Assembly (NCBI GenBank): GCA_043821365.1
Contig: JBDRCX010000006.1
Location: 192,001 to 256,000, forward strand
Reading direction: 5' to 3'
Origin: Candidatus Micrarchaeota archaeon
GTDB taxonomy: Archaea; Micrarchaeota; Micrarchaeia; Anstonellales; Bilamarchaeaceae
DNA length: 64,000 nucleotides
The notes under the pieces were generated by a model, which saw only the letters and a program-made list of their open reading frames with translations, ran no database searches and was not told where the DNA came from. Positions within the stretch are counted from its first letter, which is position 1. Every line of letters starts with the position of its first letter. Shown here piece after piece: positions 32,652-36,845 of this stretch. A program made the translations under genes and the position numbers.

Positions 32652-34433
32652 ATGAAAAATGGCCTTTTGGTGTTTTTCCTACTGTTTTTATCAGTTGTAT
32701 TTCCTTTTTCTATTGAATCATACAATCACAAAACCACTGTTTTAGCTAATGGAGACCTGCAAATATATGAAGTGATAAATTTTACTTTAGATGAAAATTA
32801 TTCTGAAGGATTTAGAACCATCAGAAATGAAGATTGTGAAAATCTTGACGATATAGCCATAAAATCAATAAAAGTAAATGGATTTGATGTGCCATATAAA
32901 ACACAGTATTACAACGGTAAAGTTGAAATTGTTTGGGAAAAAACGTATCCTGGAACGAATAATGTAGAATTAGAATACACACTAAAAGATCGCGGCCAAC
33001 TGTATGATGATTTTGCAAAAATTTGTATTGAACATTATGGCGCTGGTTGGGAAGTAATAGGTAAGAAATTTCATTCTGAAGTAGTGTTACCAGGAGAAAC
33101 ATATGGGAAAGAAATGCATTTTGAGATATACTCAGACAAAGATGGCCAGGCAATTATAGATAATCTTACTATAGTAGTTGATATTCCTAACGTGCCACCT
33201 GGAAGTTATGTTGGTGGATGTTATCTTTATGATAAATCAGCATTACAAACAGACAATATTGTTAGTGGTTCGGCATACGAAATCTTAGAAGATGAGAGAA
33301 AAATTTATGGATCAAAAAATATATTATCTGCAGAACAAATCCCTCCTCTAGCAATAGTTTGTCTTCCTGCAGCCTTGATAATAGGTGGAGTAGCGATTGT
33401 TGCATTCAACAAAGAAAAGAAAAGACCACATTATCCAGAAAGTATTTTGCCCCCAGAAAAAGAAGAACCGGAAATTATATCTATATTGGTACGTAACTCT
33501 GCTCCAAAATCAGACATCATGGCTGCAACATTATTGGATTTGATAAATCGAGGAATTCTAGACATTATTGAGATGGGAAAAGAAAAAACAATATTAGTAC
33601 TGAAAAAACGCCAAAAAAACCTCAAAGAAAAAGAATCCATACTCATAGAAATGATATTCAATGGTGGGAATACGCACGTAAATTTGGATCATCTTGCTAG
33701 TGATTTTGATGCAATTAAAACAAAGGAAGAGGCACACAGAAATACAATAAGCCGCGGTATTGAAAAATTTGACAATGCAGTGACAAAAACAATAAAGGAA
33801 AATAAATTAGACCCAGTTGGTAGTTTATTACAATTGAAATGGTTGTTTTTGGTTGTAATTATTCTTTGCATTCCTTTTGGACTTTGTATTGGATCAAGCT
33901 GGGGAGCCATGTGGTTTGCCTGGGCAATTGTTACTGGAAATTACCTAGATATTATAGGCGTGTTTATGGCTACTGCTATATTCATTGCTTCTTGTGGTTA
34001 TTTAGCTAGTAGAATATATGCACCAGAAGTACCAAAAGAAAGAGAAGATCAGTATGCTAAATGGGATGGTTTTGTTAGGGCAATAAAATCAAGCAGGCTA
34101 AAAGAATACCCGCCAGAATCAGTAAAAATATGGGGCGGAATTTTGGTTTATGCAACTGCAATTGGTTTGGCAGACAGAGTAAAAATGCACTTATCTGAAC
34201 TAAACAGATTAGTTGTAATTAAAATGGAAAGATTAGACAAAATACGCCTTGCTTCACAGCATTTTCACAGATCAGCTTTGGCACTTAACAACTTGAGAAA
34301 ATACGGAAATAGAAAGGGAAGAACATCCGGAGGTTCACATGGGGGATTTTCATCCAGATCATCAGGTGGTTGGAGTTCTAGAGGTGGGGGATTTAGTAGA
34401 AGTTCATCAGGTGGAGGGGGATTTCGCCGCTAG
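32652..34433 (+). CDS. DUF2207-family membrane protein
   Basis: Signal peptide, FSIESY...NGDLQIYE, ATLLDLINRG, W..F, LVYATAIG and a Gly/Ser-rich tail. Confidence 0.85.
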   Translation: MKNGLLVFFLLFLSVVFPFSIESYNHKTTVLANGDLQIYEVINFTLDENYSEGFRTIRNEDCENLDDIAIKSIKVNGFDVPYKTQYYNGKVEIVWEKTYPGTNNVELEYTLKDRGQLYDDFAKICIEHYGAGWEVIGKKFHSEVVLPGETYGKEMHFEIYSDKDGQAIIDNLTIVVDIPNVPPGSYVGGCYLYDKSALQTDNIVSGSAYEILEDERKIYGSKNILSAEQIPPLAIVCLPAALIIGGVAIVAFNKEKKRPHYPESILPPEKEEPEIISILVRNSAPKSDIMAATLLDLINRGILDIIEMGKEKTILVLKKRQKNLKEKESILIEMIFNGGNTHVNLDHLASDFDAIKTKEEAHRNTISRGIEKFDNAVTKTIKENKLDPVGSLLQLKWLFLVVIILCIPFGLCIGSSWGAMWFAWAIVTGNYLDIIGVFMATAIFIASCGYLASRIYAPEVPKEREDQYAKWDGFVRAIKSSRLKEYPPESVKIWGGILVYATAIGLADRVKMHLSELNRLVVIKMERLDKIRLASQHFHRSALALNNLRKYGNRKGRTSGGSHGGFSSRSSGGWSSRGGGFSRSSSGGGGFRR

Positions 34434-35986
34434 TATTTCATGTTGGTTTTGATCTGGGGTTTTTTTGGTTTGAATCCCGGAGGTGGAATCCCTTCAATTG
34501 GTTTTTTTGTAAATATTGCTTTTAGAAATAAGATAAATATTAGTAATACCCCCCCATAGTCAAAGATAGGAACAAGGAAACAACAATAGAGTAGTACCCC
34601 ACCAACCCCGAATAAAGCAGTAAGAATACTAACTGAATTATGCATTGCATGGAATAATGCTGCAATTGGCATACCGATAAGAATTCCTAGACCAGGTGCA
34701 CGGAAACCACGAATTATGAAAAATGCTATAACAGCTCCAGTAATTGCAGTGTAAAAACCATGATTAGCAGAGAACACAATAGAACGAAGAATGAACAAAA
34801 CTACCCAACCAATGATATCTGAACCCATTGGATTGTTGAGGAAATAGATCCAGTCTTCTATGAATGCAAAACCCATACCAATAACAAAACCGTATACTAT
34901 TCCATCTTCTATTGAATCATATTCATGATGTTCGGATAATAAAGAAAGACCACTGCCCTTATAGCCCTCTTCTATTATTGGGGCGACTAAAAAACTTGAA
35001 AGAAACCCTAACCCTAATATTCCGAATAGCACTCCTGCTAATGTGTTTATGCCTATCGCCATAAGTGCGGATAGCATGCCCCAAAGGAATAATGTAATTA
35101 GAATTCTGACTGGTTCTCGCTCTTTGAAATCAACATACCACCAGGCAGCACACCATAGAAATGGTATGAAAAAAGCAGCCATACCAGAAATAACAAAACC
35201 AGTTAATGCGGGAAGCGATTTCCATGCTTCTGCACTCATAACCATGTAGGATAGAATGAAAATTATCCCAATAAATTCAAATGCCCAGAAATATGGGGAG
35301 GTAATTAATGAGTAGAATTTTTGTAAAATGGTGCTTGTATTTGCAAACGGGTGAAGTAGAGAACGTAATGAATATTCACCAGGGAATGAAAGTTTGTGTT
35401 TTGTCTCACTTGCAATTTTTAAAATTAGCAAGACCACTGGAACTATTATGGCAACATATACTCCAACTAATAGAAAAAAAGCAATTGTTGAGAACTCCCA
35501 GAAATTCACTTCATAATCAGACCAATCAAGAACAAACGATAGTGGATCTGTAGAGTATTCTTTTCCATTTTGTTCAAGGATAGCAAAAACTTCATAATTT
35601 CCTTTTCCTTCGTAATTGTATGGAATATAAGCGATACAATCAACTTTTGTTAGTCCAACATAATCACTTGTTTCATAAAACTCTTCAAGACAATCAATTT
35701 CATTTATCGATTTGCCATTGGCATAAATTTTAAGGTAAAGAAGACTTGTTGATGTTAATTTTGGGGTTTTTAAGGTAAGATTAATCTCATGAGGAGAATC
35801 ACTAATAGATAATGGGATGTTGATTGGTTGAATAGAAAAATCAGGGTGGTGAATAGTCGATATGGTATCAATTGTTTCAGGCCCTAAAACCATACTCAAA
35901 CCAAGTACAATAATACTAGCCATAATACCCAAAATTGCAAGGATTATAAGAAATCCAACAAAACCGCGATTAACAAGCCCTAGCAT
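34430..35986 (-). CDS. PrsW-family intramembrane protease with N-terminal extracellular domain
   Basis: APIIEEGYKG, GMGFAFIED, HGFYTAITG and HAMHN motifs; start placed at MLGLVNR. Confidence 0.88.
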   Translation of the reverse strand: MLGLVNRGFVGFLIILAILGIMASIIVLGLSMVLGPETIDTISTIHHPDFSIQPINIPLSISDSPHEINLTLKTPKLTSTSLLYLKIYANGKSINEIDCLEEFYETSDYVGLTKVDCIAYIPYNYEGKGNYEVFAILEQNGKEYSTDPLSFVLDWSDYEVNFWEFSTIAFFLLVGVYVAIIVPVVLLILKIASETKHKLSFPGEYSLRSLLHPFANTSTILQKFYSLITSPYFWAFEFIGIIFILSYMVMSAEAWKSLPALTGFVISGMAAFFIPFLWCAAWWYVDFKEREPVRILITLFLWGMLSALMAIGINTLAGVLFGILGLGFLSSFLVAPIIEEGYKGSGLSLLSEHHEYDSIEDGIVYGFVIGMGFAFIEDWIYFLNNPMGSDIIGWVVLFILRSIVFSANHGFYTAITGAVIAFFIIRGFRAPGLGILIGMPIAALFHAMHNSVSILTALFGVGGVLLYCCFLVPIFDYGGVLLIFILFLKAIFTKKPIEGIPPPGFKPKKPQIKTNMKY

Positions 35987-36037: not shown

Positions 36038-36104
36038 GCTACAATGACGACACAGGTGATCACTGAGGCACAGCCTGTGATGATTGACGTGCGGTCTGAG
36101 TAGT
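36038..36104 (+). ncRNA. Box C/D guide sRNA (predicted target 16S C1402, E. coli numbering)
   Basis: C ATGACGA 36044-50, D' CTGA 36063-66, C' GTGATGA 36077-83, D CTGA 36096-99; two 12-nt guides; terminal stem CTAC/GTAG; followed by a T6 tract. Confidence 0.88.
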
Positions 36105-36176
36105 TTTTTGTTGACTGGAATCGCGTTGTGTAACCAAATAATGAGAAAATACACACAAGTAAAAAGAGTTTATTTT

Positions 36177-36845
36177 ATGAATAATATACAAATCAAAATT
36201 CTATTGGCGTTTGTGCTTATGCCAATTGTTTTAGGATTAATGTTTTTCGTGCCTGCAGGAACAATAAATTATTGGCAGGGGTGGGCATATATTCTAGTGT
36301 TAACGGCGCCGATGATTTTTGTTTTGTTATATTTCCTGAAGAAAGATCCTGAATTTTTAGAAAGAAGAATGAGAATGAAAGAAAAAGAAACAAAACAACA
36401 ACTAATTATCAAGATCTCGGGGGGGATTTTTCTTATCGGATTTCTTATACCTGGTTTTGATAGATATTTTGGCTGGTCTCAAATACCTGATGGAATAAGT
36501 TTTATTGCGATGATTGTAGTATTTTTAGGATATGCTATGGTCTTTTTGACTTTCAAGGAAAATAGCTATGCTGGAAGAACAATAGAAGTTGAAAAAGGAC
36601 AATATGTAATATCAACAGGGCCGTATTCAATCGTGAGACATCCGATGTATGTTGGCACCAGTGCGATGTTTCTTGCAACACCAATTGCACTAGGTTCATA
36701 TGTTGCTTTTCCAATATTTTTATTATGGATTCCTTTGATAATTATGAGGATTTTGAATGAAGAAGAAGTACTGAAACATGAATTAAAAGGATATGAAGAG
36801 TATTGCAACAAAACGAAATATCGACTGGTGCCTTTTATTTGGTGA
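36177..36845 (+). CDS. Isoprenylcysteine carboxyl methyltransferase / PEMT-family membrane methyltransferase
   Basis: ENSYA, VISTGPYSIVRHPMY, RILNEEEVL...GYEEY and YRLVPFIW motifs. Confidence 0.9.
   Translation: MNNIQIKILLAFVLMPIVLGLMFFVPAGTINYWQGWAYILVLTAPMIFVLLYFLKKDPEFLERRMRMKEKETKQQLIIKISGGIFLIGFLIPGFDRYFGWSQIPDGISFIAMIVVFLGYAMVFLTFKENSYAGRTIEVEKGQYVISTGPYSIVRHPMYVGTSAMFLATPIALGSYVAFPIFLLWIPLIIMRILNEEEVLKHELKGYEEYCNKTKYRLVPFIW

Follow-up and report, generated by a model that had tools for sequence, protein, structure and literature searches.

A conserved, unannotated box C/D sRNA of Micrarchaeota with predicted pairing to the 16S rRNA decoding centre, across a mismatch, and to the anti-Shine-Dalgarno tail

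Does a short intergenic gap in the genome of a Candidatus Micrarchaeota archaeon encode a guide RNA, and if so, what would this RNA do at the ribosome when one of its two guides carries a base that fails to pair with canonical 16S rRNA? The question arose from a 64,000-nt stretch of DNA (the window, G000:C6:192001-256000) in an assembly of 1.198 Mb (36% G+C, 6 contigs, 87% completeness). The gap spans 190 bp between divergent flanking genes (Table 1), and a long minus-strand ORF that seemingly overlaps the RNA is an artefact of an upstream GTG. A first-pass annotation had proposed an unannotated box C/D sRNA here, directed at the decoding centre and possibly at the 3' end of 16S rRNA. Every element of this sRNA was verified by script against the window letters (36038-36109, plus strand).

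Table 1 Features of the sRNA locus (positions in the window) and related loci named in the text (genome, contig and position).
Feature	Position	Strand	Remarks
TATA-like box AATAAAAA	36009-36016	+	~26 nt upstream of predicted 5' end
5' strand of terminal stem, GCUAC	36038-36042	+	Pairs with GUAGU at 36100-36104
C box AUGACGA	36044-36050	+	RUGAUGA with C at position 5
D' guide CACAGGUGAUCA, 12 nt	36051-36062	+	Positions 2-9 complement 16S GAUCACCU (1530-1537), C1533 at +5
D' box CUGA	36063-36066	+	
D'-C' spacer GGC-ACA-GCC-U	36067-36076	+	3-bp mini-hairpin
C' box GUGAUGA	36077-36083	+	
D guide UUGACGUGCGGU, 12 nt	36084-36095	+	Complement of 16S A1398-A1409, U36090 versus C1403 excepted
D box CUGA	36096-36099	+	
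3' strand of terminal stem, GUAGU	36100-36104	+	Overlaps T6
T6 run	36104-36109	+	Likely archaeal oligo-T terminator
PrsW-family protease	34430-35986	-	Left neighbour
PEMT/ICMT-like methyltransferase	36177-36845	+	Right neighbour
Fibrillarin and Nop5 genes	G000:C6:455586-456224 and G000:C2:812-1477		
Apparent sRNA paralogues	G003:C89:16118 and 18170; G007, G023		Matches to ACCGCTCGTCAA

The two 12-nt guides, the GGC-ACA-GCC hairpin spacer, the terminal stem and the T6 tail described by the first-pass annotation all lie where it had placed them. Its description of the boxes as canonical holds for D', C' and D and fails for the C box, which has C rather than U at position 5, a site that we take to be the variable U.U position of the K-turn. 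The outer motif has the arrangement of a K-turn, with the CUAC/GUAG stem followed by a 3-nt bulge (A, A, U) and then tandem G.A pairs. The minimum free energy fold (ViennaRNA, -23 kcal/mol, z = -1.9) retains the terminal stem and the mini-hairpin, a possible canonical stem for an internal K-turn. The spacers between C and D' and between C' and D are exactly 12 and 12 nt, the norm for archaeal C/D sRNAs (see PMC7229835).

A strict pattern of boxes and spacings matched only twice in the 1.2-Mb genome, at this locus and at one other sRNA, and had no match in 10 simulated first-order Markov genomes. Since none of the simulated genomes matched and the motif is conserved in dozens of related genomes, it is not a chance arrangement; anatomy, pattern rarity and conservation together bear out the proposal, and 36038-36109 is almost certainly a box C/D sRNA. 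The second match, the sole other fully canonical C/D sRNA by this pattern, lies on the minus strand at G000:C6:180504, 11.5 kb before the window start, and its D' guide CCUGAACAACCU pairs with 23S AGGUUGUU.

Rfam gave no match for the sRNA at the gathering threshold. The sub-threshold matches, all to C/D sRNA models and on the plus strand (Pyrococcus sR2, sR18, sR12, sR14 and sR1), scored 10-18 bits against gathering thresholds of 38-45 bits (best, 18.3 versus 42). Because these scores are far below gathering and the likeness is limited to the boxes, the sRNA falls outside every Rfam family. Our literature search found no paper on Micrarchaeota C/D sRNAs. Independent transcription is supported by a TATA-like hexamer conserved in position: it lies 29-35 nt before the C box in 37/68 homologues, compared with 9/68 in an equal-sized control window further upstream. 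As judged from sequence, the TATA-like box of the host would thus be a putative promoter. Oligo-T runs of at least 4 nt occur within 20 nt of the D box in 20/68 homologues.

Across 185,579 species genomes, the pattern TGANGRTTGACGNGCGGTCTGA returned 55 matches, of which 53 were in Micrarchaeota-type MAGs and all had T at the N position; the remaining two were bacterial chance matches with C or G there. A looser pattern matched 66 genomes in a 401-genome sample of the phylum, in which a reversed-pattern control had no match. These 66 genomes included 50 of the 75 from the host's own family along with members of several other families of its order, while elsewhere in the class there were two matches, and none in the 177 genomes of the two largest other families. 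Because the matches centre on the host's family and order, the sRNA family is order-level; phylum-wide conservation is ruled out by this concentration and by the 0/177 count. The homologues are phylogenetically related, so the counts given here and below are not independent.

Among 63 homologues the C box is canonical in 62 (AUGAUGA in 44, GUGAUGA in 18), and the D' box reads CUGA in 36, CCGA in 19 and CAGA in 6. The CUAC/GUAG stem is replaced by AUAC/GUAU in relatives, though a terminal stem of at least 4 bp is found in only 22/63. At six loci of relatives (L057, L064, L131, L143, L144 and L085) the sRNA is directly preceded on its 5' side by a second, incomplete copy of the C box and of the start of the D' guide, which forms a long hairpin with its complement; this arrangement is absent from the window.

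The D'-C' spacer ranges from 3 to 139 nt in relatives. Most homologues carry an insert of 74-82 nt (typically ~76 nt) between D' and C' (108-139 nt in some, with 50-60 nt added), made up of a P1 helix that covaries through compensatory changes, an invariant CUAAGC/GGCCAC internal loop and two hairpins, one covarying and capped by GUCA(A/G) or GUCC and the other of GGGGAAACCC type. This insert, which has no Rfam match, was seen in L022, L018, L023 and about 25 other loci and is absent at 36067-36076 in the window. The host spacer resembles the 3' end (GGCCACAGC) of the 75-nt domain of same-genus relatives, and by this likeness GGCACAGCCU is probably the remnant of a larger domain after deletion; other lineages have independently short forms of the sRNA. 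The insert's GUCAA loop and the 5' UUGAC of the D guide are complementary, perhaps with no significance.

The host rRNAs are incomplete. The 16S gene is split across contig ends (5' part on C4, last ~245 nt at the end of C3) and lacks approximately positions 990-1310, and the 23S lacks its 3' end; same-genus rRNAs were therefore used as proxies. We anchored 16S numbering on Nanoarchaeum equitans fragments, with UC(Am)(Am)G as 1406-1410 (see PMC5389701). In the host, the 16S and 23S genes are not linked and occupy opposite strands of contig C4. About 700 extra bases lie between model positions 1423 and 2143 of the host 23S (G000:C4:16589-18045), and one relative (G032; L118, L126) has a greatly expanded 16S (2.8 kb) and 23S (5.1 kb); the extra bases in all three are presumably rRNA introns.

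Against host 16S 1398-1409, the D guide forms 11/12 Watson-Crick pairs, with G:C1402 at +5. The sole mismatch, U36090 opposite C1403 (guide position 6, +6), adjoins the target nucleotide on its 5' side within the duplex and is flanked by 5 and 6 pairs. Random or permuted 12-mers reach 11/12 anywhere in complete 16S and 23S rRNA with p = 0.007-0.010, and the best matches to the tRNA set (an ARAGORN intron-mode list, which is unreliable) were interrupted ones of 9/12. The proposed pairing with C1402 at +5 is thus the best target, with its arithmetic correct under the anchored numbering, and 16S 1398-1409 is very probably what the D guide recognizes. The criterion of Dennis et al. 2015 (PMC4644070) asks for at least 9 consecutive pairs and allows one mismatch or G.U for double guides; with 11/12 pairs, a G:C at +5 and a mismatch at +6, the D guide fits the relaxed double-guide rule only. 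Our literature search found no data on the effect of a +6 mismatch on methylation. Predicted duplex energies are -15.7 kcal/mol for the native U6 guide and about -15.5 kcal/mol for A6 variants, compared with -22.9 kcal/mol for a hypothetical perfect guide with G6.

The first-pass annotation had left the guide U opposite 1403 as either a mismatch or a sign of an A1403 variant in the host 16S. Of these the mismatch stands and the variant is refuted: the host 16S reads ACACACCGCCCGUCAAG, with canonical C1403, and the sequence of 1398-1409 is ACCGCCCGUCAA in the host and in 19/19 relatives whose 16S was fetched. Since the host has C1403, the guide U is a real mismatch. A further remark, that the region of the 1392R primer would also be mismatched, depended on the variant and falls with it, given C1403 in the host and all 19 relatives. 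The perfect complement ACCGCACGUCAA, with A at the 1403 position, is in 41 genomes essentially confined to the antisense strand of the sRNA gene, with one further occurrence in genome G007.

The mismatch is conserved. In the 401-genome sample, C1403 faces U in 61 genomes and A in four (G025, G033, G084 and the second copy in G003), and it faces G in no confirmed homologue. The single match with G at position 6 (G165) lies in G+C-rich coding-like DNA, lacks the GGUGAUC D' guide and was left uncounted; its guide resembles that of Ignicoccus sR11. Positions 2-5, 7 and 9-11 of the D guide were fixed by the retrieval pattern, leaving 1, 6, 8 and 12 free to vary, and positions 1 and 12 do vary freely, as does position 5 of the C' box, where all four bases occur. 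Because position 6 is never G in confirmed homologues while these unconstrained positions vary, a non-G base opposite C1403, and with it the mismatch, looks selected rather than frozen. In some genomes the sRNA seems to be present as two paralogues separated by ~2 kb, of which one carries U opposite C1403 and the other A (Table 1).

For the D' guide, the first-pass annotation had suggested an 8-nt match to the 16S 3' end with C1533 at +5. This is the best and only conserved complementarity that we found: the 8-nt run GAUCACCU is the longest contiguous complement in the host's own rRNA and tRNA, and the scan of that set returned no other contiguous run of at least 8 nt. A 12-nt D' guide is found in 61 homologues. 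Counted away from the box, its positions 2-7 read C, U, A, G, U, G in every one of them (61/61); G follows at position 8 in 60 and A at position 9 in 49, and the bases at 1, 11 and 12 differ. The core GGUGAUC is the exact complement of GAUCACC, which occurs once in each 16S read (in the 3' tail) and not at all in four complete 23S sequences of relatives; the relatives' 16S sequences all end in ...GCGGAUAGAUCACCUCCAA. The probability that a random oligomer finds a perfect complement no more than 150 nt from the D target is p = 0.016 for 7-mers and p = 0.004 for 8-mers.

The D' pairing comprises 8 consecutive pairs including +5, one fewer than the 9-pair rule of Dennis et al. 2015. Guide duplexes of 8-10 bp are reported to give high methylation activity in a passage of PMC7089733 that cites Yang 2016, and the other canonical sRNA of the host pairs over 8-9 bp. 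Predicted energies of these two duplexes are -13.1 kcal/mol for the D' guide and -12.2 kcal/mol for the guide of the other sRNA. We conclude that the D' guide probably targets the 16S 3' tail. A 16S site near position 650 (UGAUUGUCUUGG) was also considered as the target of the commonest D' guide, with which it forms 12/12 pairs including three G.U; it is a poor fit for the host guide and varies without covariation, and was rejected.

Our data suggest the following model, in which the likely role of the sRNA is that of a catalytic dual guide that would methylate C1402, and possibly C1533, while transiently tying the decoding strand to the 3' tail. The sRNA would be independently transcribed and then assembled with L7Ae, Nop5 and fibrillarin into a C/D sRNP. 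All three proteins are encoded in the host genome above their Pfam cut-offs (94, 183 and 282 bits, respectively). The fibrillarin and Nop5 genes are on separate contigs (Table 1), while in most archaea they are adjacent. The D guide would bind the decoding centre at the top of helix 44, on the 5' strand (A1398-A1409), and the D' guide would bind G1530-U1537 of the tail, running into the anti-Shine-Dalgarno. C1402 contacts the P-site codon. The two 16S sites are ~125 nt apart, on either side of helix 45. From this placement of the guides on both sites, the sRNP would most likely 2'-O-methylate C1402, and possibly C1533, on nascent 16S rRNA, and it may hold the decoding-centre strand and the 3' tail together for a time, as a folding chaperone or timer. 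On balance, methylation of C1402 in spite of the mismatch is slightly more likely than not.

Binding without C1402 methylation is the main rival to this model. In that case the conserved mismatch would block methylation of C1402, any methylation would be at C1533 or absent, and the sRNP would mask or position the 5' strand of helix 44 and the 3' tail during 30S assembly. The exclusion of G from D-guide position 6, which is U or A while unconstrained neighbours vary, is in keeping with such a role; moreover, for some double guides Dennis et al. consider that one of the two pairings forms but leads to no methylation, and Seistrup et al. proposed a folding-timer role for the N. equitans sRNA sR13. 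However, the G:C1402 pair at +5, which the literature treats as critical, is Watson-Crick and invariant (at a position that the retrieval pattern prescribed), a DPANN archaeon (N. equitans) has Cm1402, and the 12-nt spacing and box geometry are exactly those of catalytic guides. We consider binding alone unlikely and retain the catalytic dual guide as the preferred model.

A second alternative concerns the D' guide, which may be an orphan or have a non-rRNA target, its match to the 16S tail being coincidental and GGUGAUC being kept by some other constraint. The pairing to the tail is only 7-8 bp, a random 7-mer finds a complement somewhere in 16S and 23S 23% of the time, and position 10, which is A in 54/61 homologues and faces C1538, is conserved with no partner in the tail and is unexplained by the tail model. 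A few copies in other families of the order also have a different D' guide, CACGUACGACU. Yet the conserved D' block corresponds exactly to the universal GAUCACC and covers precisely positions 2-8, which form the functional core of C/D duplexes; the tail site is in the same domain as the D target, 125 nt away (p = 0.004-0.016); N. equitans sR13 has a near-identical guide (GAGGAGGUGAUA) on the same 16S tail; and the alternative near position 650 lacks covariation. Even the replacement guide CACGUACGACU has a 7-nt complement at 16S 1493-1499, in the strand with which the D target pairs. A coincidental match to the tail seems improbable. The copies with CACGUACGACU (L012/L050, L042 and L074) are minimal, with a 3-nt D'-C' spacer and the D guide kept, and the 7 nt of CACGUACGACU adjoining the box complement AGUCGUA, in the helix 44 strand opposite the D target.

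The two remaining alternatives are much weaker. The D guide might have as its true target another RNA that pairs with its U, such as the 23S site ACCGCACGU, with the 16S match secondary. The 23S of a same-genus relative contains ACCGCACGU, giving 9 contiguous pairs with D-guide positions 1-9, and the host 23S contains ACCGUACGU, giving 8 Watson-Crick pairs and a G.U at +5. Against this, the site is a variable helix tip that is absent from the 23S of three other relatives, one of them same-genus; it leaves D-guide positions 10-11 unexplained (though the search pattern fixed these positions), guides with A for U would fail to pair with it, and the full perfect complement occurs in the 41 genomes essentially only at the sRNA gene. 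Because the site is a variable helix tip missing from those three 23S sequences, we treat the 9-bp match to 23S ACCG(Y)ACGU, found in one relative and not conserved, as chance, and a 23S target as highly improbable. Lastly, a host 16S with A or another base at 1403, perfectly complementary to the D guide, has nothing in its favour except the guide sequence and, barring a second, divergent rRNA operon missing from the assembly, a practically negligible probability, given ACACACCGCCCGUCAAGUC in the host 3' fragment, the 19/19 relatives identical at 1398-1409 and the C found in every 16S matched by the pattern ACCGCNCGUCAA across 41 genomes.

The closest known RNA is N. equitans sR13; the resemblance shown is one of analogy only. 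Its D' guide pairs with 1405-1415 (Am1408) and its D guide GAGGAGGUGAUA with 1531-1540 (Am1534), and it was put forward as an RNA stand-in for the checkpoint of RsmA/Dim1, which N. equitans lacks, with a folding-timer role (Seistrup et al. 2016, PMC5389701). Like sR13, which is also from a DPANN archaeon (see PMC4644070, PMC5389701), our sRNA is a dual guide joining the helix 44 decoding-site strand and the anti-Shine-Dalgarno tail; its guides pair at 1398-1409 and 1530-1537, so that both RNAs span helix 45. The tail guide of sR13 and the Micrarchaeota D' guide have AGGUGAU in common. The two RNAs differ in register, with Am1408 and Am1534 targeted by sR13 but C1402 and C1533 predicted here; in guide roles, since in sR13 the D' guide faces helix 44 and the D guide the tail whereas these are swapped in Micrarchaeota; and in complementarity, which is 10-11 nt in sR13 as opposed to 5 + 6 pairs around a mismatch and 8 bp. 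RsmA/Dim1 (PF00398) scored 164 bits in the host and was present in 41/41 genomes searched, which excludes the sRNA as its substitute. The rationale offered for sR13 is therefore inapplicable, though the bridging geometry is still the same.

Modification of the predicted targets has precedent in other lineages. Cm1402 was measured in N. equitans and Cm1533 in Ignicoccus hospitalis, neither with a guide found, and I. hospitalis sR11 was suggested to direct Cm1402 (see PMC5389701). The Cm1533 measured in I. hospitalis is at the position predicted by the Micrarchaeota D' guide. The sR11 guide reads CCGAUGGGCGGA, followed by CUGA (PMC4644070 supplement). It shares the register of our D guide and is likewise imperfect (G.U opposite G1405, mismatch at position 1), though it has a wobble at position 8 rather than a mismatch at position 6 and a different partner guide, and I. 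hospitalis is a crenarchaeal hyperthermophile in which methylation at 1402 is below 50% (PMC5389701). The perfect guide string GACGGGCGG is absent from the supplementary files of PMC4644070 that list 489 published sRNAs. Guides to the 1402 site may be generally imperfect, though three lineages are too few to settle this. Passages in PMC5053481 and PMC2831307 describe 2'-O-methylation of the C1402 equivalent, a universally conserved nucleotide, through snR70/SNORD43 in eukaryotes and RsmI in bacteria. The likeness to snR70/SNORD43 is in the nucleotide targeted, and RsmI, unlike a guide RNA, is a stand-alone protein enzyme.

What purpose might a conserved mismatch have? It could tune release of the sRNP from the G+C-rich decoding strand and so let helix 44 form (-15.7 versus -22.9 kcal/mol), a suggestion that we infer from predicted energies only. 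Alternatively, C1403 or a neighbour might be base-modified, or might have to stay accessible under the bound sRNP. An analogy to acetylation guides (a bubble of snR4/snR45 type, acting with Nat10) was dropped as unsupported: a Nat10 GNAT domain was not found in the 87%-complete host genome, and an unpaired C at 1403 is presumably outside the CCG context of such guides.

More speculatively, the mismatch may be deliberate, and the family may serve in late assembly of the 16S 3' minor domain, as a factor dedicated to that step and not as an ordinary guide for methylation. This proposal, which we regard as doubtful, draws on the mismatch, the tail-binding D' guide and the large conserved insert of relatives. 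A deliberate mismatch would fit the data because the Ignicoccus sR11 guide is independently imperfect and GACGGGCGG is absent from the 489-sRNA files.

The sRNA represents a new, unannotated family within a well-known class of RNA, unusual in its conserved mismatch and in its pairing of the decoding centre with the anti-Shine-Dalgarno tail. While textbook views are unchanged by this finding, the family is a concrete, conserved candidate guide for Cm1402, a modification measured without a guide in a DPANN archaeon (PMC5389701), and a candidate guide for a Cm1533-type modification of the anti-Shine-Dalgarno tail, in a lineage whose genomes are very small and whose guide RNAs are few. The mismatch conserved next to the target offers a natural test case for the tuning of guide-target stability and geometry, and the paired targeting would provide a second, independent example of archaeal C/D sRNPs that may chaperone late folding of the 30S subunit.
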